A stretch of DNA of 59,146 nucleotides, filler included, from Psammoneis japonica (Eukaryota), in assembly GCA_008632985.1 (NCBI GenBank). It is 2 parts of 2 records of this genome, joined end to end, with 100 filler letters (N's around TTAATTAATTAA, not from the genome) between each part and the next. Parts side by side here need not be neighbours in the genome. Positions count along the whole stretch, not along the records: positions 1 to 29,381 come from QPGO01000593.1; 1 more part is not named here. One strand, given 5' to 3'. Below the pieces are notes generated by a model that was given only the letters and a program-made list of their open reading frames with translations, had not been told where the DNA came from and did not search any database. The position numbers and the translations under genes were made by a program. Shown piece by piece: positions 6,578 through 37,845 of the stretch (positions within the stretch are counted from its first letter, which is position 1; every line of letters starts with the position of its first letter).

Positions 6578-6759
6578 CGAGTAAATCTGGATGGAGGGCT
6601 GTGCTGCAATTGGTGATTGGTTGAGACACATGGATCGAGTGGTGCTGCAGCAACACACTCACAATCTAATCAGGTTCAGGCTTGCATTGACAGTGTCACT
6701 GCTTTCCATTTAGACTCAAGGTGTCGTGCTTGTTCTTTCGTTGCATCGAGATTTATTCG
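6578..6759 (+). repeat. 5' LTR of copy A (182 bp, CGAGTAAAT...ATTTATTCG)
   Basis: Aligns with 13865-14014 and 15089-15270. Imperfect 9-bp terminal inverted repeat. Followed by a PBS at 6760-6773. Confidence 0.9.
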
Positions 6760-7219
6760 CTTTGTCAGAGCCAAGACGAAAAAGACAGAGCGAAATGGTT
6801 TCGAACACAATTCGTCATGGACGATTGTTTGTTGTGTTGTTTGCATGGAACGTGCAGCTGCAGAAACGGTGCTGAACTGTGCGCGATGCGTCAGAATTCG
6901 GATTGATGCGCACGATGATGTGTCTCGTGTCACTTGTTGTGACATCCACAAAAACAGCTTGCAATGGTGACACTCTCAAAGACAGTCACTGTCCTCACAC
7001 ATGTGACGGGTGTGAAGGGACTGCGGCATTGGGCGACATGCCCGAGCGTGTGCTCAACAATGTCGGTTGACATGAACGACACAGGACTGATCACCCTGAC
7101 GTCGGGTGGCTGTGTGAACCCGTCATCACAACACAGAGAAAGTGCAGCCATCATGACCATGCAGACTCACAGCTGTGTGTTCCCGGTGCGGGACCTTCAC
7201 ACCCTTTCTCTGTTGTGGG

Positions 7220-8735
7220 ATGGCAGCAGCGGCAGCACCAGCAGCAGCACTTGTGGCGTCAGCCGTGGCAGCTGACGTTGGTGCAGTTTTACAAGTTTGT
7301 GGCATTGCTGGCCAGAACGCAAGGGCAAGGTTGGTCTTCTGTGAAGGGTTCACAACTTTGGAAAACATCGCAGTGATGGAGAGTGATCACGATGTGGAAG
7401 ACATGGCGCATGGGGCATCTCGTCGCACGGTGGCCGACGGACGTGTGACTCTTGGGACTGTTCAGATCAAGAACTTGCAGGCGCTAGTGTGGTGGTGCCA
7501 GGATTTGCTCAAACCGAATCAGCCATTGGTTGCAGCAGACTTAAATGCAGCAGCTGTGGCTGCGGCCCGGAATGGCAGGCGTGTCGAAAAGGAGCGCATG
7601 GATTCGGACACGTTGGCAAGCAGTCTCATGAAGTTCAAGCCCGATGACTTCGATGTGTGCGAAGATGCTTTCCTGAATCTCTTGGCACAGAAATTTGGCG
7701 TGTTGAAAGAACCCCTTCGCTGTGTCGTAAGGACAATGCCAGCTCCGGCTGCATTCACGGATGCTCAACAACAGCGTGTGCACCAGATGCCATTGAATGG
7801 CGCCGCACATGACGAGGACAACCACAGCGTTTGCCGTGTGTTGAAGGAACACTTGGTCGACACAGCAGGGTGGGCATGGATCGAACCGTTTGACGCGACA
7901 GAAGACGGACGTGGAGCATTCAACGCATGGGTTGACCATTGCAGTGGACAGGGCGAGTTGAGCAAGTGCATCCATCTGGCTGCGGCAACTGTTGAAACCT
8001 TGTTTTGTGAAAAGGAAGAAACTTGCCAGTGCTTCAGCCACTTTGAACAAATCACCGGACGACTGCAAATCTGAACGACAGAAAGTTGACATTCTTCTAA
8101 AAGGGATCCGAACGGATGACACTCGTCTCATTGCAGCAACGGCTGTCATTGGCAGTCAGCACCCTCGTGACTTTGCGGGGGCATGTGCTCATTTCTCATC
8201 CGAAGTCTCTCGTTTGCATGCAGGTGCTCAGTTGGAAGCCCGGCGTTGGTCGAAGCGCAAGATTTCTGAAATGAGCCGTGGTTGCGGCAGTGGCCACGGT
8301 TTTTATCGAGGTCGCGGTCGCGGAGGAAGATTTGGACGTGGGGGTGGACGCAGACGTGGTGGTGGCCGTCAAGGCAGAGGTGGCGACCACACTGCAATGA
8401 TCAATGGAGTCAATGCATCCGACCCTGCAAGGAGCTTCAGTGCTCTAGAATGGGAAAAGTCACAGCACAATGGAGGCATGAGCTGCGTGTTCCAAGCTGG
8501 CGAACGAATGGGTCATGGACGCGGTGGTGGCCGTGGGTCTCCCGCAGGTCAACAAGGACGCGATGGGGGCAGCAGGCATGTGGCTGAAGCCCAAGTCTGT
8601 CAAGATGGCCAAGGCCAAACCCAACAACAGGATCAGGAGCAAAGGAGCAGCAGGCGTGGTCGCGGCGCTGACCGGGATCGCGGTGGATGCAATGGATGCG
8701 CCTTCGGTCGGGGAGCCTGCAATGGCTCCACCTGA
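7220..8735 (+). pseudogene. gag: copia gag, copy A (frameshifted near 8020)
   Basis: ORFs 7175..8074 and 7992..8735: EPLRCVVR, GWAWIEPF, DGRGAFNAW, KVDILLKGI, and an RGG-rich C-terminus. Paralogous to 15703-17213. Confidence 0.85.
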
Positions 8736-8744
8736 CTCCTTGGG

Positions 8745-11700
8745 GTGGCAACAGCCACTGGAGCATTGGCGCATTTGGCACACTTGTCTTTTTTGCTTGT
8801 GTTGCCCTTCTTGCTGTTGACCAAACCCCACCCAACATCTCATTTCAAAGGAAAGGCGACAAAGAGGCACATTGCCGTGACATCAAAGCGTGTGATCCGA
8901 TCGACGAGTTTTGCACAGATGACAAATTTGACGACACCTGGGTTTGTTGCTCGAAATGAATGTGACACTCACGCAGACACTTGTTGCGCTGGGGCGAACT
9001 GGAAGCTCATGGAGATGACAAATGAAGTGTGCGAGGTGCACCCATTGTCATGTGTCCCACCCAAAGTGCGAGCTGCGTGAATGGATGAGATGCCGTCATG
9101 CTGCCTGACGGTTGCCGGCAAGCCTCTTTGCCATCTCGCTCGCTCAGTGGGCACTTCAATGTCTTGACCATTGAATCAACTAGCACATCGCCTGCGTGGA
9201 CATGTCACCACACGCGACATCCTCCTTGCTGGTGACTTCAATGTTCTTCGTTCAACGGAGATCGACTCAGATTTCTTCGACACTCCTCGTTCCTTTGTCA
9301 AGTCGGTTCCCCTGAGATTCCTGATTCCCAGGTCAGAGAATCGGTCTGTGCACCGCTCCTTCTCATCCCTTCGAACAGAAAGTCTCTTTCGAGTTTCGAA
9401 CCTTCGACCTCTTTGACCTCACCGCCAATCGGAACTTTCAGCTGCGAAGACCTCGTCTTGCATCCGCTGTGTCAAGTGGACATGCAGGTGTCTCACCATG
9501 TCATGTATCCTGCCCAAAGTGCGAGCTGCATAAATGGATGAGATGCCGTCACACTGCCTGACGGTTGCCGGCAAGCCTCTTTGCCATCTCGCTCGCTCAG
9601 TGGGCACTTTAATGTCTCAACCATTGAATCAACTAGCACATCGCCTACGTGGACACATCACCACACGCGACAACCCATTTCTGGACTCTTGTGAGCCGAT
9701 CAAACAGATTCCTGTGGCACGTTGTTGCACCGCATGGACAGATCCGGAAACGACTCGTGAACATTCGCTGGTTGGTGATCAAATGCTCTGGTTTGGGACC
9801 AACATGTGACACTCACTTTTGAATCCCAACCAACTCCGTGCGCACAACATGCCCGCACATGACAACCCTTGCGACACCCGAAACGGATTTGGCATTGAAG
9901 CTGACGAAGCTTTCATCCCTTTCAATGCCACGGGGACAATTGTGTCTTTCAAGTCTCGTGTTCCGACGGATTGGGAAGCACAGAACTTGCCGGTTGTGCT
10001 GTTGACAGGCAACGCATGGGATCCAGCACAGATGGACATGGGCTTGCCAGAGTGCGCTAGAGAGCAGGCGGAGATGCGCGCCATTCAATCATCGACCTCT
10101 GGCATGCGACAAGAACAGGTCTCGGAATTGAGGAGCGAGAAGGCAAAGTCCCAAGCAGCACACTGGGGCGAGGTCGAAATGCAGCTGTCGTCCATGTCTC
10201 CCATCTGTCAACTTCAATCGTTTTGCGACAGGCTTGTCAGCTCAGTGAACGTGGCTTGTGCATGTCGCGATGACATGGACAAGAGGCAGAGGGCAGTCAA
10301 AGATTTGTGCAGCAAGGATCGGCACTCGAAGGTTGACGCTGAAGAGCTGGCCCGAAAATGGAGTGTCGGTTTAGAAACGGCAAGAGACACTCTCAATGTA
10401 ACAACTCAGCGCGGTGTGCAAACGGCGACCCAGCCGATGTCACGAAGAGTGAGGGTGGATCATCTTGACTTGCATCGGAAGCATCTGAAAGGAACATGGT
10501 TTGTGGACACTTTGACATCCAAGGTGAAGTCTTCACTCGGCAACACATGTGCCAATGTTTGTGCTCAGGGCAAATTCGTGAAGGTTGTGCCGATGACCGC
10601 CAGGTCGGAGGCAGGTTTGTCTCTTGTTGAATTCACAGACAACGTGGGTGCACCAGAATGTCTTGTGTCGGACGGGGCAGGAGAGTTCACAGGAAGGAGT
10701 GCCGAATTTGTGAGACATGCACGACGCATGAGAGTGCAATTGAGAACATCAGAGCAGGGTCGGAAGAACCAGAACCAGGCAGCGGAGCGTGAAATTGGTT
10801 TCTTGGCCAAACGTTGGCGGCTGCAGATGACAAAGAAGAAGGTGCCAAAGCGATTGTGGGATTTTGGTCTTGTTTGCGAGTCGGAATTAGTGTCGCGCAT
10901 GGCAAGAGGCAGGGACAAGAGGGCTGGATGTGAAGAGGTCACTGGGCAGACACCAGAGACAGGCCAGTGTTTGGATTTTGGTTTCTACGACATGGCATGG
11001 TGGTGGGACAGGCCCAACAAGCCGAGTGCAACTGACGATCCTCGAAGGCTTGGACGGTGGCTTGGCATCTCACACAAAGTTGGCTCGGACATGTGCCATT
11101 GGATTGTTGCGGAAAGTGGGGAGATTGTCTCCAAAACATCGGTCGAGCACGTGACACAGGCTGACATGGCACAACCGGACATTCGTGTTGAGGTTGACAA
11201 CTTTAACGAGCAGCTGGAGAAGCGATTGGATGATGCTGACTTTGTCTTAAAAGGTGATGAAGCTGTGCCCGCATTCGTGGTGGACGATCTTGCAATTGAC
11301 GGCAACCTTGGTGTGGAATGTGAGGGCGGCATCACGCCAGAGGACGAGGAGTGTGGCAACATGCTGTTGCCTGACGAGTGACCAGACGACGATGACGAGC
11401 AGGCAATCGATCAACACCTGGGAATGGAACTTGTGTTTGACATCGGAGCCAACGGCGAGCGACGTGGTGTTGTAACGAAACGTGCAAGAGGACAGGATGG
11501 GCGTCCAATTGGGACTCGGCATCAAAACCCATTGTTTGACACTCGCAAAAACGAAGTGGAACATGCCGATGGAACCACAGATGAGTGTGCAGCCAATGTC
11601 ATTGCCAAGAACATGTTTGCTCAGGTCAACAGCGAGGGCAACCAGCATTCCATCTCACACGAGATGCAGGACCACGAGAGGAGTGACGATGCGGTGTCGA

Positions 11701-13673
11701 TTGCTGACGGCACCATGCAAACCGCTGACAGGAAGGAGAAGAAGAAGATCACAACAAAAGGATGGAAGTCATTGGGCGGATGGAAGGATGGCAGCTCATC
11801 TTGGGTCAAACTCAAAGATCTAAAGGACTCCAACCCCATTGAAGTTGCTGAGCATGCTGTTGCAAACAGGTTGACGGAAGAACCTGCTTTTGCTTTGTGG
11901 GTCACACATGTCCTGCGTGAATGGAACCGCATTGTGTCCAAGGTCAAGAAGAAGCACTGGCGCACGACTCACAAGTTTGGGACCCGATTGCCCAAGTCCA
12001 CGGAGGATGCTTTGCGGGTTGATCAGGAAACGGGGACAGATTGTTGGGCTTGTGCAATCAATGAGGAGATGGCAAAGGTGAAGGTGGCATGGCGCGAGCA
12101 CGAAGCTGAAACCCCTCAAGTCGTCCAGGAAGGCAAGAGCACAACTTTGCGTGGTTGTCAGGAGATCAGGTGCCACATGGCATTTGGCATTAAAATGGAT
12201 TTCACCAGAAAGGCAAGGTTTGTAGCTGGCAGACACACGACAGAGGCCCTGGCATCGATCGCTTGCTCTGGCATGGTTTCCAGAGACAGTGCGCGACTTG
12301 GATTCTTGTCAGCAGCCTTGAATGGTGCCGACATTACGGCGATTGATCTGGAGAATGCTTGTCTCAATGCACCGTGTGCAGAAAAGATGTGGTTTGAAGG
12401 TGGAAAGGAATGTGGCGGGTACGAAGGAAAGGTGCTTGTTGTTGCTCGGGCGTTGCATGGCTCAAAGAGCTTGGGACACTCTTGGAGGTCTGCACTGTCA
12501 TCGATCTTACGTGACTCAGGCTTCGAATCGACGAGAGCGGACCCAGATGTCCACTTGCGTGCGGCGACTCGTGAGGATGGGCACGAGCATTGTGAAATGC
12601 TTTTGGTTTGCGTCGATGACATGCTGGTCATTTCCCATCAAGGGAAGTCCATTGTTGCTGCAATGGGTGAACACTGTGCCGTGAAGCCCGGCAGCAAAGG
12701 AGAACCAGAAGTTTGTCTTGGAGCTAATGTTGAGAAGGTTCAGACTCAGGATGGGCGCACAATCTGGGCGAGTTCACCGAGGTCACATGTCAAATCGGCG
12801 ATTGAGACTGTGGAAGGCCCATTGGATGAAGACGGCAATGGAGAGGTTCTGAAGAACAGTGCAAAGGATCCACCACCCCCAAAGCACAAACCGGAACTGG
12901 ACGTGACGGACGAGTTGGGCCCCGACTTGGTGGACAGGCATTTGCAGCTGACAGGGATTTGTCGTTGGGCGATCGAGTTGCGTCGCATCGATGTCTTGCA
13001 TGAGGTTTCAATCCCATCTCAACATCAAGCCAATCCAAGGAAAGGACATCTTGAGGCATTGCATCATGCATTTGCGCACATGAAGAAACACCAGAACATC
13101 GGATGCATCAGATTTGATCCAAAGGAACTGGTGATTGATGAATCTATTTTCAATTCGAACGCAGACTGGACCAAGTTTTACGGGGACGTCGAGGAGGAAC
13201 TGCCGCCACGGGCACCGAAGCCTCGTGGCAATCTGGCAAACATCCACGCATTTGTTGATGCTAACCATGCAGGGAATGTTGTCACTCGCAGGTCGCATGG
13301 CAGGACTCTGACATTCGTCAATGATGTGCCAGTGGTTTGGTTCAGCAAGCGGCAGAACACGGTGGAATCGGCAACGTTTGGAAGTGAATTGGTTGTGGTG
13401 CGGATTTGCAAGGAATTGATTGTTGCTTTGCGTCACAAGCTTCGCATGTTTGGGGTTCCCCTTGAAGGACCGGCAAGTGTCTTTTGTGACAATCGCGGTG
13501 TTGCAAAGAATGCAAGTGCACCCGAGTCGGTTTTGCACAAGAAGCACAATGCCATCAACTGCCATGTTGTGCGAGAAGTGGTCGCAGCGGGAATCATTCG
13601 TGTTGGCAAGGAGGATGTGGAAACGAACTTGGCCGATCCACTTGCAAAGGTGGTCACAGGAGAGCGGCGATGA
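8745..13673 (+). pseudogene. pol: copia pol (PR-INT-RT-RNase H), copy A, with stops and a TRIM insertion
   Basis: ECDTHADTCCAG; LVSDGAGEF and QNQAAEREIG; TTKGW..WVKLKDLKDSNP; RKARFVAG, DLENACLNA, LVCVDD; FVDANHAG, SKRQNTVES, FCDN, NLAD. Confidence 0.95.
9046..9672 (-). mobile_element. TRIM-like non-autonomous LTR element nested in copia A pol
   Basis: Two 174-bp TG...CA repeats (9046-9219, 9499-9672) around a 279-bp interior. Minus-strand PBS TGGTGAGACACC and PPT AAGGAGGA. 6-bp TSD ACCCAT (9040-9045, 9673-9678). Absent from copy B at ~17520. Confidence 0.9.
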
Positions 13674-13864
13674 AAGCTTTGCTTGTGCATTTTTTGGCAA
13701 TGTCCCGACACCAAGGCCAGGCACCTGTGGCTCGTGCCCACGCATCGTGGCCTCCCAAGCCAGTGTGTCTGGTGGTTTAATTTGGGTTCTTGTGGTTTGC
13801 CTCTCTGTGAGAGGATGTCACATGTTTGGACAAATCGGCGCTGTCATTGCCGTTTTGCAGGGAC

Positions 13865-14014
13865 CGAGTAAATCTGGATGGAGGGCCATGTCACAATTGG
13901 TGATTGGTTGAGACACATGGATCCAATGGTGCTGCAATGACATGCTCACAATCTAATCAGGTTCAGGTTCACAAGGTGTCATGCTTGTTCTTTCGTTGTA
14001 TCGAGATTTGTTCG
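13865..14014 (+). repeat. 3' LTR of copy A (about 32-bp internal deletion)
   Basis: Follows the PPT. Aligns to 6578-6759. Ends GATTTGTTCG. Confidence 0.85.
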
Positions 14015-14328
14015 TTCCAACTTTGCAATGTTCCAAGATGACTTGCTTCAGTGGAATGATCAGATCCAGTCAGAAGAAAAGAGTCACTCTGTTGCTGTGG
14101 TTTCAAGTGTTTTGAAGGTTGTGAATCAATTTGCTGCTGCTGTTCATGACACCATTCCCAGCTGTTCCCGAGGGGCGTCATTGTTTGGCAGTGACACCCA
14201 CCTTGGCCAACCACAACACATTCCTGCCGCGCCACTGGTGCACTGAGGGTGTGGGTCAGCTTGTTGCCAAAATTGCAGGGTGGAAGTGTGGCAGCACTTT
14301 AAACATGGAATTTTGGTTTTGTTTTTTT
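14015..14328 (+). mobile_element. Fragment ending in a LINE-type 3' terminal motif and T-rich tail
   Basis: CTGCCGC..GGTGCACTG..GTGTGGGTCAGC..GCACTTTAAA..GGTTTTGTTTTTT resembles 2060-2164. The 5' boundary is uncertain. Confidence 0.5.
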
Positions 14329-14640
14329 GCGTGGCAGCGCAGCATTGCCAACACGCACCCGGGAAGCATGGCCACAGGAGGGCGTGGCTCTCATGTCTCA
14401 GGCAATCTAGAAGGATGCTGCGAGAGCAAAGCACTCCAACCTGTTTGTCTGGCCCACAACAGTGGCATGATTCCACACAATGACATCACTCGTGCACAGC
14501 ACATGATGGCATGATTTGCACAATCCACAATGCGAGTGCACGATTGATTGGCGCGATCCAAAATGCAAGTGAGTGGGAATTTGACAAGATTCCCTGTTCT
14601 CGCGATTCCATTTCTCTGTGCATGAACTGGCTCACAATTT

Positions 14641-15088
14641 GGCAGAATGCGGTGGAATTGGCAATGTTTGGAAGTGAATTGGTTGTGATGCGGATTTGCA
14701 AGGAATTGATTGTTGCTTTGCGTCACAAGCTTCGCATGTTTGGGGTTCCCCTTGAAGGACCGGCAAGTGTCTTTTGTGACAATCGCGGTGTTGCAAAGGA
14801 TGCAAGTGCACCCGAGTCGGTTTTGCACAAGAAGCACAATGCCATCAACTGCCATGTTGTGCGAGAAGTGGTTGCAGTGGGAATCATTCGTGTTGGCAAG
14901 GAGGATGCGGAAACAAACTTGGCCGATCTACTTGCGAAGGTGGTCACAGGAGAGTGGCGATGGAAGCTTTGCTTGTGCATTTTTTGGCAATGTCCCGACA
15001 ACAAGGCCAGACACCTGTGGCTCGCGTCCACGCATCGTGGCCTCCCAAGCCAGCACATCTGGTGGTTTAATTTGGGTTCTTGTGGTTT
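14641..15088 (+). mobile_element. 3' fragment (RNase H end and 3' UTR) of a third A/B-family copia copy, into which copy B is inserted
   Basis: Aligns to 13351-13798 (FGSELV..LRHKLRMFGVP..FCDN..NLAD) and stops abruptly at the LTR starting at 15089. Confidence 0.85.
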
Positions 15089-15702
15089 CGAGTAAATCTG
15101 GATGGAGGGCCATGTTGCAATTGGTGATTGGTTGAGACATGTGGATCGAGTGGTGCTGCAGCAATGTGCTCACAATCCAATCAGGTTTGGGCTCGCATTG
15201 ACAGTGTCACTGCTTTCTGTTTGGACTTAAGGTGTCGTGCTTGTTCTTTCATTGCATTGAGATTTGTTTGCTTCATCAGAGCCAGGACGAAAAAGACAGA
15301 GCGAAATGGTTTTGAATGCAATTTGTCATGGACGATTGTTTGTTGTGTTGTTTGCATGGAATGTGCAGCTGTAGAAACGGCACTGAACTGTGCGCGATGC
15401 GTCAGAATTCGGATTGATGCGCACGATGATGCGTCTCGTGTCGCTTGCCATGATGTCCACAAAACAGCTTGCAATGGCAACACTCGCAAAGACAGTCGCT
15501 GTCCTCACACATGTGACGGGTGTGAAGAAACTGCTGCATTGGGCGACATGCCCGAGCGTGTGCTCAATGATGTCGGTTGACATGAATGACACAGGACTGA
15601 TCACCCTGACGTCGGGTGGCTGTGTGAACCCGTTGTCACAACACAGAGAAAGTGCAGCCATCATGACCATGCGGGACCTTTGTGCCCTTTCTCCATTGTG
15701 GG

Positions 15703-17213
15703 ATGGCAGCAGCAGCAGCACCAGCAGCAGCACTTGCGGCGTCAGCCGCGGCAGCTGACGTTGACGCAGTTTTACAAGTTTGTGGTGTTGCTGACCAGAA
15801 CGCAAGGGCGAGGTTGGTCTTCTGTGAAGGGTCCACGACTTTGGAAAACATCGCAGTGATGGAGAGTGATCACGATGTGGAATGCATGGCGCAGAGGGCG
15901 TCTCGTCACACAGTGGCCTACGGACGTGTGACTCTTGGGACTGTTCAGATCAAGAACTTGCAGGCACTAGCATGGTGGTGCCAGGATTTGCTCAAACGGA
16001 GTCAGCCATTGGTTGCGGCAGACTTTAATGCAGCAGCCATGGCTGCAGCCCGGGATGGCAGGCGTGTCGAAAAGGAGCGCACGGATTCGGATGCGTCGGC
16101 AAGCGGTCTCGTAAAGTTCAAGCCCGATGACTTCGATGTGTGCGAAGATGCTTTCCTGAATCTCTTGGCACAGAAATTTGGCGTGTTGAAAGAACCCCTT
16201 TGCCATGTCGCAAGCACAATGCCAGCTCCAGCTGCATTCACGGATGCTCAACAACAGCGCATGTGCCAGATGCCATTGAATGGCGCCACATGTGATGAGG
16301 ACAACCGCAGCGTTCACCGTGTGTTGAAGGAACACTTGGTCGACACGGCAGGATGGGCATGGATCGAACCGTTTGACGTGACAGAAGACGGACGTGGAGC
16401 ATTCAACGCATGGGTTGACCACTGCAATGGACAGGGCGAGTTGAGCAAGTGCATCCATCTGGCTGTGGCAACTGTTTCTTCGAAAAGTTCAATGAGAAAC
16501 TTGCCAGTGCTTTCGCCACTTTGAACAAATCACTGGACAACCGCAAATCTGAACGACAGAAAGTTGACATTCTTCTAAAAGGGATCCGAGTGGATGACAC
16601 TCGTCTCATTGCAGCAACGGCTGTCATTGGCAGTCAGCACCCTCGTGACTTCACGGGGGCATGTGCTTGTTTCTCATCCGAAGTCTCTCGTTTGCATGCA
16701 GGTGCTCAGTTGGAAGCCCGGCGTTGCTCGAAGCGCAAGATTTCTGAAATGAGCCGTGGTGGCGGCAGTGGCCACGGTTGTTGTTGAGGTTGCGGTCACG
16801 GAGGAAGATTTGGGCGTGGGGGTGGACGTGGACGTGGTGGTGGCCGTCAAGGTGGAGGTGGCGACCACACTACGATGATCAATGGAGTCGATGTGTCCGA
16901 CCCTGCAAGGAGCTTTGGCGCTCAAGAATGGGAAAAGTTGCGGCACAATGGGGGCATGAGCTGCGTGTTCCAAGCTCGCGAACGAATGGGTCATGGATGC
17001 GGTGGTGGCCGTGGGTCTCCCGCAGGTCAACAAGGACGCGATGGGGGTGGCAGGCATGCAGCTGAAGCCCAAGTCTGTCAAGATGGCCAGGGCCAAACCC
17101 AACAACAGGATCAGGAGCAAAGGAGCAGCAGGCGTGGTCGCGGCACTGACCAGGATCGCGGTGGATGCAATGGACGCGCCTTTGGTCGGGGAGCCCACAA
17201 TGGTTCCACCTGA
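15703..17213 (+). pseudogene. gag: copia gag, copy B
   Basis: ORFs 15682..16524, 16449..16787 and 16875..17213 are colinear with gag of copy A. Confidence 0.85.
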
Positions 17214-17222
17214 CTCCTTGGG

Positions 17223-20200
17223 GTGGCAACAGCTGCTGGAGCATTGGCGCATTTGGTGCACTTGTCATTTTTGCTTGTGTCGCTCTTCTTGCTGTTGACC
17301 AAACCCCACCCAACATCTTGTTTCAAAGGAAAGGCGACAAAGAGGCACATTGCCGTGACATCAAAACGTGTGATCCGTTCGACGAGTTCTGCACAGATGA
17401 CAAATTTGACGACACCTGGGTTTGTCGCTCGAAATGAATGTGATGCTCACGCGGACACTTGCTGCGCTGGGGTGAGCTGGAAGCTCATGGAGATGACAAA
17501 TGAAGTGTGCGAGGTACGTCCATTTCTGGACTCTTGTGAGCTGATCAAACAGATTCCTGTGGCACGTTGTTGCACCACATGGACAGATCCAGAAACGACT
17601 CGTGAACATTTGCTGGTTGGTGATCAAATGCTCTGGTTTGGGACCGACATGGAACACTCACTTTTGAATCCCAACCAACTCCGTGCGCACAACACACCCA
17701 CACACGACAACCCTTGCGACACCTGAAACGGATTTGGCACTGAAGCTGACAAAGCTTTCATCCCTTTCAATGCCACGGGGACAATTGTGTCTTTCAAGTC
17801 TCGTGTTCCAACGGATTGGGAAGCACAGAACTTGCCGGTTGTGCTGTTGACAGGTGACGCATGGGATCCAGCACAGACAGACATGGGCTTGCCGGAGCAC
17901 ACCAGAGAGCAGGCGGAGATGTGTGCTGTTCGATCATTGACCTCTGGCATGCAACAAGAACAGGTCTCGGAATTAAGGAGCGAGAAGGCAAAGTCCCAAG
18001 CAGCACGCTGGGGCGAGGTCGAAATGCAACTGTCGTCCATGTCTCCCATCTGTCAACTTCATTCGTTTTGCGACAGGCTTGTCAGCTCAGTGAACATGGC
18101 TTGTGCATGTCGCGACGACGTGGACAAGAGGCAGAGGGCAGTCAAAGATTTGTGCAGCAAGGATCGGCACTCGAAGGTTGACGCTGAAGAGCTGGCCCAA
18201 AAATGGAGTGTCGGTTTAGAAACAGCAAAAGATGCTCTCAATGCAGCAACTCAGCGCGGTGTGCGAACGGCGACCCAGTCGATGTCACGAAGAGTGAGGG
18301 TGGATCATCTTGACTTGCATCGGAAGCGTCTGAAAGGAACATGGTTTGTGGACACTTTGATGTCCAAGGTGAAGTCTTCACTCAGTGACACGTGTGCCAA
18401 TGTTTGTGCTCAGGGCAAATTCGTGAAGGTTGTGCCGATGACCGCCAGGTCGGAGGCAGGTTTGTCTCTTGTTGAATTCACAGACAATGTGGGTGCACCA
18501 GAATGTCTTGTGTCGGACGGGGCAGGAGAGTTCACAGGAAGGAGCACCGAATTTGTGAGACACACACGACGCATGAGAGTGCAATTGAGAACATCAGAGC
18601 AGGGTCGGAAGAACCAGAACCAGGCAGCGGAGCACGAAATTGGTTTCTTGGCCAAACGTTGGCGGCTGCGGATGACGAAGAAGAAGGCACCAAAGCGATT
18701 GTGGGATTTTGGTCTTGTTTGCGAGTCGGAATTAGTGTCGCGCATGGCAAGAGGCAGGGACAAGAGGGCTGGATGTGAAGAGGTCACTGGGCAGACACCA
18801 GAGATGGGCAAGCGTTTGGATTTTGGTTTCTGCGACATGGTGTGGTGGCGGGACAGGCCCAACAAGCCAAGTGCAACTGACGATCCTCGAAGGCTTGGAC
18901 GGTGGCTTGGTGTCTCACACAAAGTTGGCTCGGACATGTGCCATTGGATCATTGCGGAAAGCGGGAAGATTGTCTCCAAAACATCGGTCGAGCATGTGAC
19001 ACAGGCTGATGTGGCACAACCGGACATTCGCGTTGAGGTCGACAACTTTAATGAGCAGCTGGAGAAGCGATTGGACGATGCTGACTTTGTCTTAAAAGGC
19101 GATGAAGCTGTGCCCGCATTCGTGTTGGACAATCTTGCAATTGACGGCAACCTCGGTGTGGAACATGAGGGCGGCATCACGCCAGAGGATGAGGAATGTG
19201 GCAACATGCTGTCACCCGACAAGCGACCAGACAACGACGATGAGCGTTCAATCGATCAATGCCTGGGAATGGAGCTCATGTTTGACATCGGAACCAACGG
19301 CGAGCGACGTGGTGTTGCAACGAAATGTGCAAGAGGACAGGATGGGCGTCCAATTGGGGCTCGGCATCAAAACCCATTGTTTGACACTCGCGAGTGCAAA
19401 GTGGAACACACCGATGGAACCACAGACAAGCACACAGCCAATGTTGTTGCTGAGAACATGTTTGCTCAGGTCGACAGCGAGGGCAACCAGCACTCCATCT
19501 CACACGAGATGCAGGGCCACGAGAGGAGTGACGATGCGGTGTCGATTGCTGACGGCACCGCACGAACCGCTGACGGGAAGGAGAAGAAGAAGATCACAAC
19601 AAAAGGATGGAAGTTGTTGGTCAGATGGAAGGATGGCAGCTCATCTTGGGTCAAACTCAAAGATCTAAAGGACTCCAACCCCATTGAAGTTGCTGAGCAT
19701 GCTGTTGCGAACAGGTTGATGGAAGAGCCTGCTTTTGCTTGGTGGGTCACACATGTCCTGCGCAAACGGAATCGCATTGTGTCCAAGGTCAAGAAGAAGT
19801 GCTGGCGCATGACTCACAAGTTTGGGATCCGATTGCCCAAGTCCACGGAGGATGCTTTGTGAATTGATCAGGAAATGGGGACAGATTGTTGGGCTCGTGC
19901 AATCAACAAGGAGATGGCAAAGGCAAAGGTGGCATGGCACGAGCACGAAGCTGAAACCCCTCAAGTCGTCCGGGAAGGCAAGAGTGCAACTTTGCGTGGT
20001 TGTCAGGAGATCAGGTGCCACATGGTGTTTGACATCAAAATGGATTTCACCAGAAAGGCAAGGTTTGCAGCTGGCGGACACACAACAGAGGCCCTGGCAT
20101 CGATCACTTGCTCCAGCGTGGTTTCCAGAGACAGTGTGCGACTTGGATTCTTGTCAGCAGCCTTGAATGGTGTCGACATTACGGCGATTGATCTGGAGAA

Positions 20201-21446
20201 TGCTTGTCTCAATGCACCGTGCGCAGAAAAGATGTGGTTTGGAGGCGGAAAGGAATGCGGCGAGTGCGAAGGAAAGGCACTTGTTGTTGCTCGGGCGTTG
20301 TGTGGCTTAAAGAGCTCGGGATGCTCTTGGAGGTCTGCACTGTCATCGGTCTTACGTGACCCAGGCTTCGAATCGACGAGAGCGGACCCAGATGTCTGCT
20401 TGCATGCGGCGACTCGTGAGGATGGGCACGAGCATTGTGAAATGCTTTTGGTTCATGTCGACGATGCACCAATCATTTCCCATCAAGGGAAATCTGTTGT
20501 CACTGCAATGGGTGAACACCACACCGTGAAGCCCGGCAGCGAAGGAGAACCAGAAGTTCATCTTGGAGCTGATGTTGAGAAGGATCAGACTCAGGATGGG
20601 TGCACAATCTGGGCAAGTTCACTGAGGTCACATGTCAAATCGGCGATTGAGACTGTGGAAGGCCTGTTGGATGAAGACGGCAATGGAGAGGTTCTGAAGA
20701 ACAGTGCAAAGGATCCACTGCCCCCAAAGTGCAAACCGGAGCTGGACGTGACGGACGAGTTAGGCCCCAACTTGGTGGACAGGCATTTGCAGCTGACAGG
20801 GATTTGTCATTGGGCGATCGAGTTGGGTCGTGTCGACATCTTGCATGAGGTTTCAATCATGTCTCAATGTCAAGCTAATCTGAGGAAAGGACATCTTGAG
20901 GCATTGTGTCATGTGTTTGCGTGTGTGAAGAAACACCAGAACGTCGGACGCATCGGATTTGATCCAAAGGAACCGGTGAATGATGAATCTATTTTCAATT
21001 CAAATGCAGACTGGACTGAGTTTTACGGGGATGTCGAGGAGGAACTGCCGCCACGAGCACCGAAGCCTCGTGGTGATCCAGCAAACATCCGCGCATTTGT
21101 TGATGCCAACCATGCAGGGAATGTTGTCACTCGCAGGTCGCACAGCGGGATTCTGACATTCGTCAACAACGCACCAGTGGTGTGGTTCAGCAAGCGGCAG
21201 AACACAGTGGAATCGGCAATGTTTGGAAGTGAATTGGCTGCAATGCGGATTTGCAAAGAATTGATTGTTGCTTTGCGTTGCAAGCTTCGCATGTTTGGGG
21301 TTCCCCTTGAAGGACCGGCAAGCATCTTTTGTGACAATCGCAGTGTTGCAAAGAATGCAAGTGCACCCGAGTCAGTTTTGCACAAGAAGCACAATGCCAT
21401 CAATTGCCATGTTGTGCAAGAAGCGGTTGCAGCGGGAATTGTTCGT
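17223..21446 (+). pseudogene. pol: copia pol, copy B
   Basis: ORFs 17223..17726, 17787..19862 and 19875..21470: DAHADT, integrase core, LVHVDD, FVDANHAG. Confidence 0.95.
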
Positions 21447-24651: not shown

Positions 24652-27600
24652 TCATCCTTGATCATCACATGTGTCGTGCAGCATCACACAAACGAGGCCA
24701 TCTTGCTTGATGCCACCGCACATGATCCCAGTCGCAAGATCAGCCGGATTGCACTCCGATCTAATGTGTCCTGCAAGGGACTCACCCACAGCTGCCGACT
24801 CCCTGACAGCATGGCAGCACATGGAGTTAGACTTCTTCTTCAAAGTCGACTCTGGGCTTTGGGTGTTGTGGATGACTGACATGTTGTCCCCACAAATGCA
24901 CGATGGTCTGCTGAGCGGGACTCCCATCATCCTGAGTTTGTGCCTTGGGCCTCGCAAAGCTTCCATGCCCTGCTTCACAGCCACAAACTCAGCACCAAAG
25001 ACTGAAGTCTCGATGGCACTCTGGCGCTTGGAGAGCCAGGCAATTGATGCCATGTTCAAACAGATGAAATGACCAGTGCGAGAGCGTCTCGTCACTTTGT
25101 CATTCGCATGATCTGAGTCTACAAATGGGCGCAGATCAATGTCCTTGCCCAGAGCTTCTGGTGCATTCGGCGGAATTGCCTCCTTGGCATCCCCGCAAAA
25201 TGCCTGCCAATCACATTCCTTAAAGCCAGACATGTCGACATCCGGGTGCGTCGGATCGAACGCTGACGTGGCGTCATGTCTGTTCTTGAGGTGTCCACAC
25301 ACATGCAGGACTGCGCCGAGATGACCTTCTCTGGGCATGGCAAGGAATGAGGCAAGCTCGGACACCTCTGCTGTGAGGTTGACTCGTAAAAGTTCCACTG
25401 TCCAGCGCAGGACTCCTGCCTGCAACTGGTGAAATCGAGCCCGCTCTGCATCGAGCTTTGGTGCAATGTCGAGCTCCGGTCAACAGTCGCGCGGAAACGG
25501 AGCCGTTGCCTTGTGTGGTGACGTCCATCCGGGAGCAGACTCATCTAGATGCCCCTCGACATTTCCAACAGCCTGTTGGATGTGCTTGCTGGAGCTCATG
25601 CTCCACGCGCAGACACTGTTCGGCATTTGCACTTCACGGATCTTCACCCCGAGGTGCATCTCAGGGTCACCGATGGATCCGGGTTTCATCTTGAAGTGTC
25701 GGTCCAATTCCTTGAGCACCAATGTAGCATCGTGGTGCACCACAAGCACGTCGTCGACATGCAACAGTGCATGGGCACAGCAATGGAACCCATCATCTGG
25801 TCGAACTTGTGCCTTCATCCACACATTGGGATCAGCTGGACATGGTTCCCAACCAAGATGATGCATGCACGATGCCAAGTGGTTCCCAAAGGATGCACCT
25901 GCACTCTTCAATCCGTACAATGCGCGCTCAACTGTGGCACGCTTCCCAGCATTGGGTCCAAACTCAGGTCCTGGAGTTGTGGTGATCTTCTTGCTGTCAG
26001 GTGCAGTGATGTGGGCATTCTCAATGTCCGCAGCCTTAACCTCTGGGTCATTTAGAGCCGCTGGAGCGAAGGCAATCCTTGCACTTTCACGGGAGACGAC
26101 GCTTGCACACGTCAGGGTCGCTGGAGGTTCAGTGGCATGTCCCCCTGCAACACAACGAGCCTTCCGCTTGAAGTCTTGCAGTTTGACATCAAAGACCAAG
26201 TGGCAGCAGACACGCTGGCAACCCACAAGCTCCTCGTCATCGTCAACAATCTCAAAGGCTTTCGCAACGACTTCGATGTCCTCATCTACGGCGTCCTGCC
26301 ACAAGCGGTCGCCGTTGGCCTTGTCGATCTCGACTGCCTCTTCACAGGTCTTGGGAATGCACACCCCGCACTTGTGAGTGCGCTTGTGATGTCGCTTGTT
26401 CACAGCGGCTGTGATTTGCTGACGTTTCTTGAAGGCAAAGGGAACCCACCAGGCGAGTGCGGGTTCATCCTCTGTGGATCTAGCCCTGGCATGCTCTGCC
26501 ATTTCCACTGGGTTAGATTCCTTCAAGTCGGACAGTCGTTCCCAAGATGTGGGTCCGTCTTTCCATTGCACGCAAAGATGCCAGCCTTTGGCCGTCTTTT
26601 GCATGGATCGACGTCCTCGACTGTCTTGGATGAAGGCGTCCTCCTTCTTGACAGCATGCCCGTCAGTCTTGTGATCAACAATTGCATCTGGCAACAAGTG
26701 CTGGTTGCCTTCATTGTCACACTGTGCAAACATGTTCTCAGCGATGACATTCGCCGCGAATTCTGCTTCCTGTCCATCAGGAAACTCGACCTCACACACA
26801 CGAGTGTCAAGTGTTGGGTTTGGGTTGGCCCGTCCGGCAGGTGTGCCGTCCGGATTGAGCTTGCGTCGCTTCACTGTCCCAGTCTGTTCCATGTCCCCGT
26901 GAGGCAGCAGCACTTCTGCATTGACATGTTGATCGCAGGCTTCATCTGGCATGTCATCCTCATCGGAGGCACTGGATGGAACATCCTGTTCCTCGTCATC
27001 CTCGTGCGGTTCGAAGGTGGGAGCAATTGTGTCAGGGTCATCAAAGTCCCCGACGGTCATGCCAGGGCCTGGCTTGACCTCTGTCAACCTGTCAAACTTT
27101 TCACGTGACACCATGTGCGTCTTGTGTCCCTGCTCCTCGGGAGTCAGTGCCCTGCAAGATGAGCGATGGACTGCCTGTCCTTTCTCCTTGAGCACCCTGG
27201 CCGTCACAGCTGGGCCCACATCCCTGCTCGGACCTGGATGTCGCCCCAGGACTTCCTTGTCCTTGGGAAATGAGACTGCCGTGTCTCGAAACATGACCCA
27301 GTCGCACCAGCCTGGTTCGCATGTGTGCGAGATGTCAGCCGTCTGACCGGACACAACAGTTTCCGGGACTTCACCGTCAAGCTCATAGATGCTTCAAGCG
27401 GTGTCAGACCTGATGAGGCCTTCCAGATCCAGGCAATCATCCCACAGGCATTTTGGGGCCTGTGACTTGACCATCTTGCGCCCAACACCTCGCTTGAGTT
27501 CACGAATTGCGCCCTCTGCGGTGTCAGACCAAGGGGCACATGGTTCAGTTTGTCTTGCATGGCAATCAGCCTCCCTGGCTTTCTCACCAAACAGCCCCAT

Positions 27601-28787
27601 TGTCTCTTCTCTCGCCCCGTCCACTGGCACAGCATGGGGCATGCCTTCTTGCGCAAAGAGCAACCACAACGCCTCGTGCGCCAAACGTTTTGACTTCAAT
27701 GGATGAGCGCGTGCCCATCCATTGGACATTGCGAACACTTGCGCACACACATTCCCTCGCCTGGACTTGACAGAGGAGAACATGGCATCGGAGCACATCT
27801 CCTTTGAGATGCGCCTGCATCGCAGTTGTCGATCATTGGCACGGAAACGTCGCGACAGTGTGGGATGTAGAACCATCCTGGCTCCGCGCTGTGTCGCAAC
27901 CTTGAGAGTGTTCTGAGCATCCTTGAGGCTGATGGACCAATTCTTGGCCAAACGTTCAGCGTCAACCTTGAAGCCGCGCTTTGTCATCTTGAGCGAAGAC
28001 AGTTTCATGGATGCCAGCAGCAAACGGTCATCGTGTGCATTGGAAATGTCACGCAACGGCTGATTCCCCAGAGAGTCTGAGGTCTCTTGAGCTGCAGTGC
28101 GTGAGAGCTTTGTGCTCACAATGTGCACATGAGGACGCGCATCGTCCCCGGTCTCATGCACTCTGCCAAGAGCATCGGTCATGGCATCTTCCCCAGCGTG
28201 GAAATCAGAGGAGGCGGGGTCCCATTCCGGGGACTCATGCATGAGTTCGCACACGCTCCCATCTTGGGCCGCATCCTCGCACTGAGATGAGGTCGGGACA
28301 CTGGAGGGGAAGCAGCTCGAGACTCCCTCCAGGTCCAAAGGCACAGCCAATGAAGCCCATTTGCGTCCTTGGCACAATCGCATGTTCCTTGTCGTTGGGC
28401 TTTGTCAGTGGAAACTTCGGTTTTAATGAAAGTTCCACGTCATTCAGCCACAACTGCATTGGACACAGCAAGTCATGCTCAAGGTGTGGCACATGGACTG
28501 CTTGGTGGACAACCAAGACGTGTGGGTGGCCCGTCTGAGGATCGGCACAAGCAACAGCTCCACTGACGGTGCGCAGACGCTTGCTGGCACCCAATGTCGG
28601 GTCGCACCCTTCCATGTCTGCTGGCCTGTCATGGTCAAGTAAAATTAAAGCGTGCTTGCCTGGCACGCTTGTGTCTGCATGACTGTCGATGTCCGTGAGA
28701 CTCTTCGTTCGATGGTCCCTTGACCTTTGTCTGGGTCAAGCGCAAAGTCTGCAACGGACTGAGCCGCATGACAGCCACCATTGGCGG
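24652..28787 (-). pseudogene. pol: copia pol of element C (PR-INT-RT-RNase H), frameshifted
   Basis: IDSHADT, LLCPMQL, LHPTLSRRFRAND, AEGAIRELK, AKGWHLCVQWKDG, RKARCVAGGH, ALYGLKSAG, LLHVDD, FVDSDHA, NPADLAT. Confidence 0.95.
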
Positions 28788-33740: not shown

Positions 33741-34122
33741 CGGATAAATCCGAATGCACGCTGCAAAGAATTCAAAATGTTGACGTCGCTTGCGGCCTGC
33801 GGCCAGCGGCCATGGCCATGGAGGTCAAGGAACGATCATATCATACAGCATTGATGTGACGATGACACCACCACTGCCAATGACCAATTGAGGCAATATC
33901 CATCGCCGTGATAGTTACTATATGGTGACGCTCCGCCTGCAAAATCTGCAGTTTCAAGTTGAGAAGCCTTCCTCGGAAACATGGTTTGCATTTTAGAATT
34001 TGTCGAAAACCTTTTCAAATGTTTCTTTTTGGCGATGATTCGAAACACGTCGTGTTTCTTCCACGATACTCTCACAACGCCCACGATACTCACAACGTCG
34101 AGACAAACGCACTGCAACAACA

Positions 34123-35252: not shown

Positions 35253-35429
35253 ATGATAATTCTCTGCAGATTCATCCTCTGCAACATCGCGCTTCCGATA
35301 GGATACTACTTCTATTATAATTAACTTCTATAACTAACGTCTCTGGAAGAATCAGTTGTAATACATGTACGGTGTGCATAGAAATACTACACGAGAGTGG
35401 CTTTACGACCTACTCCTTTGAGGCATCCG

Positions 35430-35721: not shown

Positions 35722-35774
35722 ATCGACGGATCAGCCATCTTGCACCAGAGAGGAATCATCAGGAGTGCCGTCGG

Positions 35775-37728: not shown

Positions 37729-37841
37729 GAGCATCACGTGCGCACGTGACGAGCGTCCCGTGCGCACGTGTCGAGCGTCCCGTGCGCACGTGTCGAGCGT
37801 CCCGTGCGCACGTGTCGGGGTCTGTCACGTGCGCACGTGAC
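37729..37841. repeat. 22-bp tandem repeat (4 units) plus a perfect 18-bp palindrome GTCACGTGCGCACGTGAC
   Basis: Units of GAGCGTCCCGTGCGCACGTGTC start at 37729 (variant), 37751, 37773 and 37795. Palindrome at 37824-37841. Confidence 0.9.
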
Positions 37842-37845
37842 GGTC

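Follow-up and report, generated by a model that had tools for sequence, protein, structure and literature searches.

Two neighbouring retrotransposon copies in a diatom chromosome raise an unusual question: why should one copy encode cysteine where its sister encodes histidine, and the reverse, at site after site? An earlier note had proposed that both residues descend from tyrosine codons hit independently in each copy, on either strand. We examined this in a window of 59,146 nt from Psammoneis japonica (two records of assembly GCA_008632985.1, positions 1-29,381 being QPGO01000593.1), and the evidence is accordingly a fossil pattern read from one 59-kb window of one assembly.

Two dead copia copies and their differences

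Both A and B are LTR retrotransposons of the Ty1/copia type, and both are dead (Table 1). Copy A spans 6578-13798, split by the 628-bp insertion, and copy B occupies the stretch between 15089 and ~21452. The true LTR is a 182-bp block starting at 6578, 13865 and 15089; a 448-bp repeat (13351-13798, 14641-15088, 21196-21452) was rejected as an LTR, being the 3′ end of pol. The reported contrast between the primer-binding sites lies directly after the two 5′ LTRs, where the PBS-like word is CTTTGTCAGAGCC in copy A (6760-6772) and CTTCATCAGAGCC in copy B (15271-15283). The gag-like ORFs of copy A (7175-8074 and 7992-8735) gave no Pfam match, and its pol starts at 8814-9044 (tblastn, P0005 residues 1-77). 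The TRIM-like insertion ends in direct repeats of ~175-187 bp, with CCATT as the duplicated target, and copy B provides the empty site at 17520-17524. Fragment F adjoins the LTR at 15089 and is 95% identical to A 13351-13798. Element C served as an independent replicate, and the gene island contains a minus-strand gene (~35.4-36.8 kb) in which fumarylacetoacetase and GST are fused; its exon at 36329-36802(-) shares 55-61% identity with diatom fumarylacetoacetase-GST proteins.

Table 1. Positions of the features discussed, counted along the whole window
Feature	Positions	Strand	Basis
5′ LTR of copy A, 182 bp	6578..6759	+	three-way block in common with 13865-14014 and 15089-15270
Copy A internal region, 5′ part	6760..9046	+	90.6% alignment to B 15089-17524
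Small LTR element (TRIM-like) inside copy A, 628 bp	9047..9674	+	
Copy A pol frame, integrase to RT/RNase H, 3 stops	9675..13697	+	tblastn P0005 residues 77-1418; RVT_2 match
3′ LTR of copy A, with 32-bp deletion	13865..14014	+	three-way LTR block
Fragment F, pol 3′ end of third copy	14628..15088	+	tblastn P0005 residues 1299-1418
5′ LTR of copy B	15089..15270	+	three-way LTR block
Copy B internal region, 5′ part, gag-like	15271..17291	+	alignment to A 6578-9046; gag peptide pairs found
Copy B pol, single frame with 2 stops	17292..21446	+	tblastn P0005 residues 1-1386, one HSP; RVT_2
Element C, more distant copia-type pol, same Tyr-to-Cys/His erosion	24700..28053	-	tblastn
Host-gene island, internal control, ordinary TpA content	33500..38000	.	

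All 14 peptide pairs listed in the earlier note were found in place as TGY versus CAY codons (for example, CVDD at 12609 in copy A pol and HVDD at 20454 in that of copy B), and the ALYG said to be retained in element C lies at 25923 on the minus strand. Alignment of copy A, with the TRIM-like insertion taken out, to copy B gave 6545 aligned columns with 588 mismatches, 515 of them transitions. The count of TG/CA mismatch pairs that had been proposed as a check came to 113 adjacent double differences (A=TG 49, A=CA 64), and randomly scattered transitions would give only ~40 adjacent doubles with all classes summed. The other double-transition classes were small (AC/GT 11, CC/TT 4, AA/GG 4, AT/GC 4, CT/TC 2), and no CG/TA double difference occurred in the alignment.

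The dinucleotide that is all but missing from both copies is TA: copy A keeps 30 in 6593 nt, copy B 28 in 6812 nt. Throughout the repeats the TpA observed/expected ratio is 0.01-0.16, depleted DNA holding 0-5 TpA per 500 nt versus 24-33 expected, and the depletion extends into the DNA between elements; the gene island has 7-32 per 500 nt versus 26-35 expected. Whole repeat-rich domains are affected and the host genes next to them spared.

Tyrosine, not arginine, as the ancestral residue

The ancestral state decides between loss of TA and ordinary methylated-CpG decay, in which CG ancestors (arginine CGY codons) undergo C-to-T change on either strand and leave TG or CA in each copy. For each of the 15 in-frame Cys/His discordances we asked which residue is in the majority among 40 intact homologues: it was tyrosine at 11 and arginine at none, the reverse of what an arginine ancestor would predict. 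All 15 are TGY/CAY and none is TGR/CAR, an outcome with P = 1.2e-4 under CG ancestors given that CGR makes up 51 of 113 CGN codons (45%). When the discordant pairs were reverted to TA, the mean blastp score against the 40 homologues rose from 1414 to 1469 bits for copy A and from 1441 to 1487 bits for copy B, with no extra stops in either; reversion to CG lowered it to 1396 and 1414, respectively. Tyrosine, which makes up 3.1% of the homologues and 0-0.27% of the copy A and B ORFs, rose from 0.1-0.2% to 1.3-1.4% on TA reversion.

CpG decay is nevertheless real in these copies. Single differences of the CG/TG and CG/CA types number 82 and 85-86, each copy has lost about 7 of 38 CGN codons at conserved arginine columns to CA or TG, and CpG observed/expected is low in the repeats (0.25-0.8 versus about 1.1 in the gene island). 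Among 69 in-ORF discordances, 32 were assigned a TA ancestor and 5 a CG ancestor, with 32 left unassigned, so that CpG ancestry covers 5 of the 37 resolvable sites (~1 in 7). The yield per site and copy is ~18% for CpG decay as compared with ~90-95% for TpA; at ~18% one would expect a handful of double hits, not 113, and CpG decay does not account for the shortage of TpA or of tyrosine. As sole cause it is refuted by the homologue residues, the reversion test and the ancestor assignment, and we give it almost no credence. It forms instead a second, weaker layer in the same copies, contributing a minority of the TG/CA discordances.

Independent hits, strand and flanking bases

Near saturation, as the earlier note had surmised, is evident from conserved tyrosine codons: 65 of 75 in A, B, C and one fragment are now TG (37) or CA (28), and none of the 75 is CG. 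The breakdown is TG 11, CA 10, TA 2 and AA 1 in copy A, TG 16, CA 7 and TA 1 in copy B, and TG 9, CA 10, TA 1 and other 5 among 25 codons in element C. At tyrosine columns present in both A and B the outcomes were concordant at 9 and discordant at 10, in agreement with independent hits, although a test of 19 sites leaves room for up to roughly 40% shared hits that predate the split. We consider it very probable that a TpA to TpG/CpA mutational process acted on chromosomal DNA, after integration and on each copy separately. Such a process, acting on integrated copies, would turn nearly every TpA into TpG or CpA: within the palindrome, the A on one strand or the other undergoes an A:T to G:C transition. 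If every site was struck separately in each copy, sisters should differ as Cys versus His at about half of their former tyrosine codons; and because an altered site is no longer TpA and receives no second hit, CG would never arise from TA.

The claim of strand symmetry is supported, with one refinement. There is no sense-strand bias in the pooled TG:CA ratio (37:28, p = 0.32), nor do the per-copy ratios depart clearly from 1:1 (A 11:10; B 16:7, p = 0.09; C 9:10), copy B alone leaning to TG. Strand-coordinated runs of outcomes were also absent (52 runs seen versus 56.5 expected, p = 0.39). The choice of strand is not a pure coin toss, however, since it depends on the base 3′ of the A. A pyrimidine follows the edited A at 42 of 55 informative sites, comprising 24 of 32 tyrosine codons having a preceding pyrimidine and 18 of 23 paralogue-polarised sites. 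Strand choice is unlinked to the coding strand and follows local sequence, with 5′-T-A-Y preferred about 3:1. Under a preference of this size RTAY sites should be wiped out and YTAR sites be the main survivors, and this is what the surviving TAs resemble: of 173 in depleted DNA, 96 are YTAR and 7 RTAY, whereas the corresponding figures among 121 TAs of the gene island are 15 and 36 (chi-square p = 3e-16). When tetranucleotides across the whole window were used to test the T-A-Y rule, the result leaned the predicted way and was not significant (ratio 1.33 versus 1.17, p = 0.37).

Timing, chemistry and known systems

The two LTRs of the TRIM-like insertion differ at nine places: four TG/CA doubles, four cases of TA versus TG or CA, and one CpG, with no difference of any other type between them. 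Because these LTRs differ only at TA-type sites and one CpG, the changes post-date integration. The copy A LTR pair (6578-6680 versus 13865-13967, 103 nt) has four TG/CA doubles, three other transitions and one transversion. The LTR-pair differences back the proposal that the target was double-stranded chromosomal DNA rather than RNA or the product of reverse transcriptase error. ADARs act on RNA and prefer a 3′ G, as opposed to the pyrimidine seen here, and to our knowledge they are known only in animals. Editing before integration (A-to-I conversion of retrotransposon RNA by an ADAR- or ADAT-like enzyme, or reverse transcriptase errors, followed by retrotransposition) would suit retroelement targets and the preference of RNA adenosine deaminases, which change A to G, for a 5′ U or T (bioRxiv 10.64898/2026.01.13.699255), but it is scarcely tenable given near-equal A-to-G and T-to-C on the sense strand, LTRs that derive from one template yet differ at TA sites, and depletion in non-retroelement repeats and inter-element DNA. 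TG/CA pairs were found, for example, in an 859-bp tandem repeat.

One could also envision a read or assembly artefact in which a modified base at TpA of silenced DNA is miscalled and the true sequence is still TA; strand-specific miscalls of modified A or T at the palindrome would yield both TG and CA. We compared copy B with the public run X1, whose library type is not on record and which may be the assembly's own sample. Only 42% of sampled copy B words occur in X1, and copy B's own base lacks X1 contig support at 36 of the 40 places listed, gaps that we tentatively attribute to contig building losing rare variants of a multi-copy family. Against the artefact, 322 of the 1809 X1 contigs aligned to copy B match it at 99% or more, some exactly at a word depth of ~38, and just 4 of the 40 differences with the best support turn TG/CA into TA. 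Both the length of the X1 contigs (up to 315 kb) and their even word depth are as accurate reads would give. The TG/CA states are moreover inherited: 15-kb duplicates (98.6% identical) hold them in common, with only 6 discordant pairs across 11.5 kb of DNA free of TA, and of the 5 sites informative in a three-way comparison, fragment F agrees with copy A at 4. The environmental homologue P0019 likewise shows Cys or His in place of tyrosine at 7 of 24 conserved tyrosine columns. We thus regard miscalling as very improbable, if marginally less so than CpG decay or editing before integration.

The direction of the change, its TpA specificity, its use of both strands, its independence between copies, its timing, its flanking preference and its sparing of genes are read from the data, whereas chemistry and purpose are inferred. 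As to the chemistry of the targeted hypermutation, we rate adenine deamination at about an even chance. A targeted deaminase would convert adenine to hypoxanthine enzymatically in DNA, and polynucleotide adenine deaminases with U or T at -1 exist (TadA/ADAT). The same hypermutation could instead be thymine-directed, a modified T in R-T-A mispairing with G to give T-to-C; since T-A-Y is R-T-A on the opposite strand, the two routes would leave an identical signature and cannot be told apart by sequence. Thymine hypermodification at TpA occurs in other protists, but we know of no thymine modification that gives near-exclusive T-to-C, and we consider this route unlikely, though considerably less so than the alternatives above. 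The hypermutation may serve to disable mobile DNA.

Known systems resemble this one in part. RIP in ascomycete fungi likewise introduces dense transitions limited to repeated or mobile DNA at a specific dinucleotide, on both strands, with sister copies decaying independently and coding capacity lost. Its direction is the exact opposite, C:G to T:A and mostly CpA to TpA, creating TpA and removing CpA/TpG (PMC2621366). In methylated transposons, 5-methylcytosine that is deaminated at CpG also gives TpG and CpA on either strand, but this decay, unlike the process here, is unable to remove TpA or to make Cys/His from tyrosine codons. ADAR hyperediting and APOBEC editing of retroelements and viruses in animals likewise leave clusters of deaminase-type transitions, by which mobile or viral sequences are disabled; APOBECs, however, make C-to-T changes during reverse transcription in strand-coordinated clusters (PMC4866542). 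The changes here are post-integration, A:T to G:C, and on both strands without runs.

The closest match is the chlorarachniophyte Bigelowiella natans (Rhizaria), in whose mutation-accumulation lines de novo TpA to TpG/CpA change was measured (Mettrop et al., 2026 preprint, bioRxiv 10.64898/2026.01.13.699255); ours is a rare signature of DNA editing with a single earlier report, from an unrelated alga. The main text of that source does not contain the words "diatom", "LTR", "retrotransposon", "trinucleotide", "context" or "flanking". Its described targets are integrated giant-virus and virophage DNA, and reverse transcriptase and DDE domains are overrepresented among the TpA-poor coding sequences there. 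As here, the changes are described as almost exclusively A-to-G and T-to-C, all at TpA with a strand-dependent outcome, restricted to foreign or silent DNA in an otherwise normal genome, with a long-term footprint in which TpA is low and CpA+TpG is high. The two cases differ in that mutations were measured as they arose in B. natans and are known here from the fossil pattern alone, and in that viral insertions are affected there, as opposed to LTR retrotransposons and other repeats in a diatom. The depletion of TpA is mild in B. natans (rho 0.45, NCLDV region), whereas in the repeats studied here it is near saturation.

Ancestral state of the TG/CA differences

All 14 peptide pairs listed in the earlier note for copies A and B, two dead Ty1/copia-type sister copies, are present, each pairing a TGY codon of one copy with a CAY codon of its sister, and the PBS-like words of the two copies, both directly after LTRs, differ as that note stated. 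Alignment of copy A (insertion removed) with copy B over 6545 columns yields 588 mismatches, including 515 transitions, and 226 of these transitions make up 113 adjacent TG/CA doubles (the mismatch count the note had called for). Randomly scattered transitions would be expected to give about 40 adjacent doubles, all classes together; the second commonest class here numbers 11, and there are no CG/TA doubles. The remaining differences comprise 167 CpG-type singles, 24 singles of TA versus TG or CA, about 93 other transitions, and 73 transversions. With 14/14 pairs and 113 doubles, the original observation is confirmed.

The relatives used to determine the ancestral dinucleotide share 49–65% identity over the RT/RNase H half of pol (618 matches at E 0.001 or better, best 120 listed), and the best 40 were aligned with the ORFs of A and B. 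Among the 15 in-frame Cys/His discordances (sites with TG in one copy and CA in the other), Tyr is the majority residue at 11 (in 24–40 of the 40 homologues), and the other four fall in variable columns or at other residues; Arg (CGN), which the earlier note had named as the residue that would contradict its reading, is the majority at none. All 15 are TGY/CAY, with no TGG/CAG or TGA/CAA pairs. CGR ancestors would yield such pairs and TAR ancestors, being stops, cannot, so this uniformity argues against CG (P = 1.2e-4 under CG ancestry, with 51/113 CGN codons purine-ending). When all three codon phases are taken (69 in-ORF discordances), a TA ancestor is assigned at 32, a CG ancestor at 5, and neither at 32, i.e., TA at 32 of the 37 resolvable sites. 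With the discordant pairs reverted to TA, no new stop arises and the 40 homologues are matched at a higher mean blastp score (A, from 1414 to 1469 bits; B, from 1441 to 1487 bits), as predicted; with CG in their place, the mean falls to 1396 and 1414, respectively. The accompanying prediction that Tyr frequency would normalize holds in part: it rises from 0.1–0.2% to 1.3–1.4%, about half way to the homologues' 3.1%, which would be expected of a reversion that covers only the discordant half of the mutated sites.

Decay of methylated CpG, under which both TG and CA would descend from CG, is ruled out as the cause of the Cys/His pairs by the lack of any Arg majority, the absence of TGR/CAR pairs, and the loss of similarity upon CG reversion. 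Ordinary CpG decay has nevertheless taken place in the same copies, at roughly 18% per copy, as indicated by the 167 CpG-type singles, the five discordances with CpG ancestors, and 53 conserved Arg columns, where CGN is kept in 31 (A) and 30 (B) and replaced by CA or TG in 7 (A) and 6 (B). The derivation of TG/CA pairs from TA thus stands for most pairs but not for a CpG minority (5/37 resolvable) that the earlier note did not separate. Conversely, we considered whether the CG/TG and CG/CA singles could be double events leading from TA to CG; this was rejected, since no conserved Tyr codon has become CGY and the conserved Arg columns show decay starting from CGN.

Element layout and timing of the changes

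Self-comparison of the window and tblastn with intact homologues establish the layout of the elements and correct the boundaries of the earlier note.

Coordinates of copia-type elements and their parts in the window
Feature	Position	Basis	Remark
Copy A 5' LTR, 182 bp	6578-6759	self-comparison of window	
Copy A gag-like ORFs and pol start	pol start 8814-9044	self-comparison and tblastn with intact homologues	
Insertion in copy A, 628 bp	9047-9674		interrupts pol
Copy A pol, resumed	9675-13697	tblastn	
Copy A 3' LTR	13865-14014		
F, pol 3' end of third copy	14628-15088		adjoins LTR at 15089
Copy B 5' LTR	15089-15270		opens copy B
Copy B pol	17292-21446		single frame with 2 stops
Element C, more distant copia-type	24700-28053		minus strand

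The 182-bp LTR block occurs three times, starting at 6578, 13865, and 15089. LTRs flank the internal region, and a PBS-like word directly follows the 5' LTR in both A and B; with TA restored this word is ...TATCAGAGC, which would correspond to the tRNA-iMet-type PBS of copia elements. A 448-bp repeat (13351-13798, 14641-15088, 21196-21452) was rejected as an LTR because tblastn identifies it as the C-terminal part of pol, and the LTR arguments resting on it were dropped. Between A and B (13865-15270) lie the A 3' LTR, about 600 nt of unassigned DNA, the pol fragment F, and the B 5' LTR; the resulting LTR-internal-LTR-internal order points to unequal recombination or nested insertion. RVT_2 (PF07727) matches in A and B score 32–35 bits, barely above the 31.6 cut-off, as compared to 63–64 bits in intact homologues. 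The integrase domain was seen only as a sub-threshold rve_3 match at residues 382-419 of the pol homologue P0042, upstream of RT (866-1040), and as precomputed PF00665 annotation in some homologues; the Pfam search gave no integrase match in A or B themselves and no match in their gag-like ORFs. Among the best 120 of the 618 pol matches, one relative alone is named, a reverse transcriptase of Fragilaria crotonensis (57% identity).

The two LTRs of a single insertion are copied from one template, so TA-type differences between them must have arisen in the chromosome, at far above the background rate. The insertion in A, which has a CCATT target duplication and whose site is empty in B, has LTRs differing at nine places (4 TG/CA doubles, 4 TA singles, 1 CpG, and no others); at the four TA singles, TA is kept in the 3' LTR and the 5' LTR has TG or CA. 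Over 103 nt, the LTR pair of copy A differs by 4 TG/CA doubles, 3 other transitions, and 1 transversion. Sequences duplicated at the DNA level, by comparison, have most states in common. The 15-kb tandem duplicates, with 98.6% identity, have no more than 6 TG/CA pairs between them over 11.5 kb of DNA devoid of TA, and fragment F, 95% identical to A and 91% to B, has the state of A and not that of B at 4 of the 5 TG/CA sites that are informative across the three. Together these results bear out the proposal of a DNA-level change in the chromosome after integration.

The duplication itself spans about 15 kb (29482-44499 and 44500-59146, 98.6–99.7% identity). Its halves differ mainly at CpG (33 CpG singles versus 6 TG/CA doubles and 5 TA singles). 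TG/CA doubles also separate copies of non-retroelement repeats, e.g., a tandem repeat with an approximately 859-bp unit. The repeat lies at 42271-43987 and 56925-58635, and its units are about 90% identical. They differ by TG/CA doubles (5–9 per pair) and CpG singles, with 0–2 TpA per 500 nt.

Saturation, independence, and strand choice

At conserved Tyr codons (15 or more homologues aligned, 80% or more of them with Tyr), A has 11 TG, 10 CA, 2 TA, and 1 AA; B has 16 TG, 7 CA, and 1 TA; C has 9 TG, 10 CA, 1 TA, and 5 other; and F has one TG and one CA. Pooled, 65 of 75 such TAY codons have turned into TGY or CAY, with no CGY among them, indicating that a mutated TpA was not changed a second time. 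This accords with the near saturation claimed earlier, and both outcomes are seen in A and in B. The events were also held to be independent in each copy: at 24 Tyr columns of a MAFFT alignment, A and B agree at 9 (6 TG/TG, 3 CA/CA) and disagree at 10, the approximately 1:1 ratio that fully independent events give, the other five columns having retained TA, an AAC codon, or gaps. A shared fraction of up to roughly 40% is compatible with this 19-site count.

No sense-strand bias was found when TG:CA was compared to 1:1 (pooled 37:28, p = 0.32; B alone 16:7, p = 0.09). Processive action on one strand would leave strand-coordinated clusters, but the order of outcomes along the 113 discordant sites (52 runs versus 56.5 expected, p = 0.39) shows no long one-strand tracts.

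The choice of strand does, however, depend on flanking bases. Among TAs surviving in depleted DNA (one copy of the 15-kb duplicate counted), YTAR accounts for 96/173 and RTAY for 7/173, as compared to 15/121 and 36/121 in the host-gene island at approximately 33.5-38 kb, which has ordinary TpA (chi-square p = 3e-16). Tyr codons after a pyrimidine, where the sense strand reads Y-TA-Y and its complement R-TA-R, became TG 24 times and CA 8 times (p = 0.007), whereas those after a purine, which read RTAY on both strands, split 13:20. A paralogue still has TA at 44 sites, of which 23 are asymmetric; 18 of these follow the same preference and 5 go against it (p = 0.011), for a pooled agreement of 42/55, with the caveat that the Tyr-codon and paralogue sets may overlap at a few sites. 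A window-wide tetranucleotide test went in the predicted direction and was not significant, the control island being small. Most simply put, the preference is about 3:1 for the A of 5'-T-A-Y over that of 5'-T-A-R. The strand symmetry claimed in the earlier note therefore survives as an absence of coding-strand bias and of runs, but not as a pure coin toss.

On the sense strand of A and B, GC skew is positive (0.11–0.19 over 10001-21000) and TG exceeds CA (681 vs 604 in A; 714 vs 629 in B); element C, on the opposite strand, has negative skew. These asymmetries may go back to the initial composition of the elements, or the T-A-Y rule may have produced them as a side effect in coding sequence.

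Extent in the window and relation to known systems

TpA observed/expected is 0.01–0.16 across the window, except in the gene island and its duplicate (0.3–0.65); in TpA-poor DNA, TpG and CpA stand at 1.5–1.9 and TpA at about 0.05. Within this one window, the host gene is thus spared as compared to the repeats. The spared gene (35438-36802, minus strand) encodes a fumarylacetoacetase fused to a GST-type domain; because the 15-kb duplication includes the island, it is present twice. The host is a diatom. Homologues of the spared gene contain PF01557, PF09298, PF13417, PF02798, and PF13409, and its named relatives are all from diatoms (Fistulifera, Seminavis, Amphora, and Skeletonema; 39–61% identity), other matches being unnamed proteins. 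The left edge of the TA-poor domain (32000-33500) is graded, at 5, 6, 8, then 17 TA per 500 nt, and the right edge of the island (38000-39500) is sharper, falling from 10 to 2 TA per 500 nt at 38 kb.

An assembly artefact hiding true TAs would give mostly differences with TA where the assembly has TG or CA. X1, a public run of unrecorded library type that may derive from the source sample, contains 42% of copy B's sampled words, with contigs up to 315 kb; 1809 short contigs align on copy B, 322 at 99% identity or better, some matching it exactly at a word depth of about 38, and the summed depth of 1000–2600 points to a multi-copy family. Variable places among these family copies are transitions at 247/263. 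Only 4 of the 40 best-supported differences change TG or CA to TA, which speaks against an artefact, and at 19 B has TG or CA against CG in the family, a sign of CpG decay private to B. No X1 contig has B's own base at 36 of these 40 places, an absence that probably reflects the loss of rare variants during contig building. Two further runs, X2 and X3, contain next to none of the stretch, and no RNA run was among those listed as containing copy B.

In mutation-accumulation lines of Bigelowiella natans, 231 of 302 nuclear single-nucleotide mutations fell in two integrated viral regions; those in the viral regions were almost all A-to-G or T-to-C, all on TpA, and were seen in some lines only, and the authors proposed an ADAT2-like adenine deaminase (bioRxiv 10.64898/2026.01.13.699255). 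The main text of that preprint mentions neither diatoms nor LTR elements and makes no statement on flanking bases. The diatom changes are of the same type, being A-to-G or T-to-C on TpA as polarized by Tyr (giving TpG or CpA), confined to foreign or silent DNA with host genes of normal composition (in one window), and made on chromosomal DNA after integration. They are unlike RIP, which is set off before meiosis by duplicated sequence, depends on a RID-type cytosine methyltransferase homologue, and converts C:G to T:A, raising TpA and lowering CpA and TpG; here TpA is depleted, TpG and CpA are elevated, and the ancestor is TA. GC-biased gene conversion, selection against TpA, and UV photoproducts at TpA were set aside on inferential grounds, since they leave unexplained the strict TpA specificity, the restriction to dead repeats, and the independent TG and CA outcomes.

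The present case is thus a further instance of TpA hypermutation, a process described once before. A literature search for a TpA signature in diatoms or in transposons generally returned only the RIP literature and the Bigelowiella preprint; in the one diatom paper containing "TpA" (PMC4504042), the string occurs inside "Tpase" and not as a dinucleotide. The process being otherwise documented in one 2026 preprint on one alga, a saturated signature in diatom retrotransposons shows that it is not peculiar to one lineage or to viral inserts. New here are the polarity drawn from conserved Tyr, the independence of sister copies, the absence of second events and of strand runs, the timing from LTR pairs, and the T-A-Y preference. 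Sister copies yield mechanistic constraints beyond the reach of a composition scan: the change is post-integration, independent per site and per copy, never made twice, not strand-coordinated, and directed to a strand by the base 3' of the A.

The mutational process in A and B is well supported, as is, in general terms, the interpretation given in the earlier note with three refinements (the CpG minority, context-guided strand choice, and corrected boundaries); behind the TpA change we infer an enzyme and a targeting signal. U-A-C is the anticodon-loop substrate context of TadA/ADAT, and a T-A-Y target would, by analogy, present the same local context. One could envision, although we consider it rather unlikely, that a T-A-Y-targeting adenine deaminase acts on DNA as a chromatin-domain-directed genome defence in diatoms (Stramenopila) and chlorarachniophytes (Rhizaria) alike. 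Such a defence would be an old equivalent of fungal RIP across SAR, opposite in chemistry, and would erase Tyr codons and TAA/TAG stops of mobile DNA before two LTRs gain any other difference. The search for an enzyme is narrowed in any case: a candidate would be expected to target T-A-Y in DNA, and algae without the signature should lack it or have it in an inactive form. The rule also supplies simple assay substrates (RTAY versus YTAR oligonucleotides).

Because TAA and TAG are lost with other TAs, long false ORFs appear in all six frames; between 6000 and 30000 there are 61 ORFs of at least 120 aa in 24 kb, in all six frames and most overlapping, and these are surely for the most part not genes. 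Such ORFs, together with weakened domain searches (RVT_2 at 32–35 vs 64 bits), will mislead annotation of such genomes. The environmental homologue P0019 (metagenome contig, 1405 aa, otherwise intact) has Cys at 5 and His at 2 of 24 conserved Tyr columns (Tyr in at least 30 of 40 homologues), and its overall Tyr content is 1.7% versus a median of 3.5%; judged by its protein sequence, it resembles a copy from another sample in which the same loss of Tyr is at an early stage.
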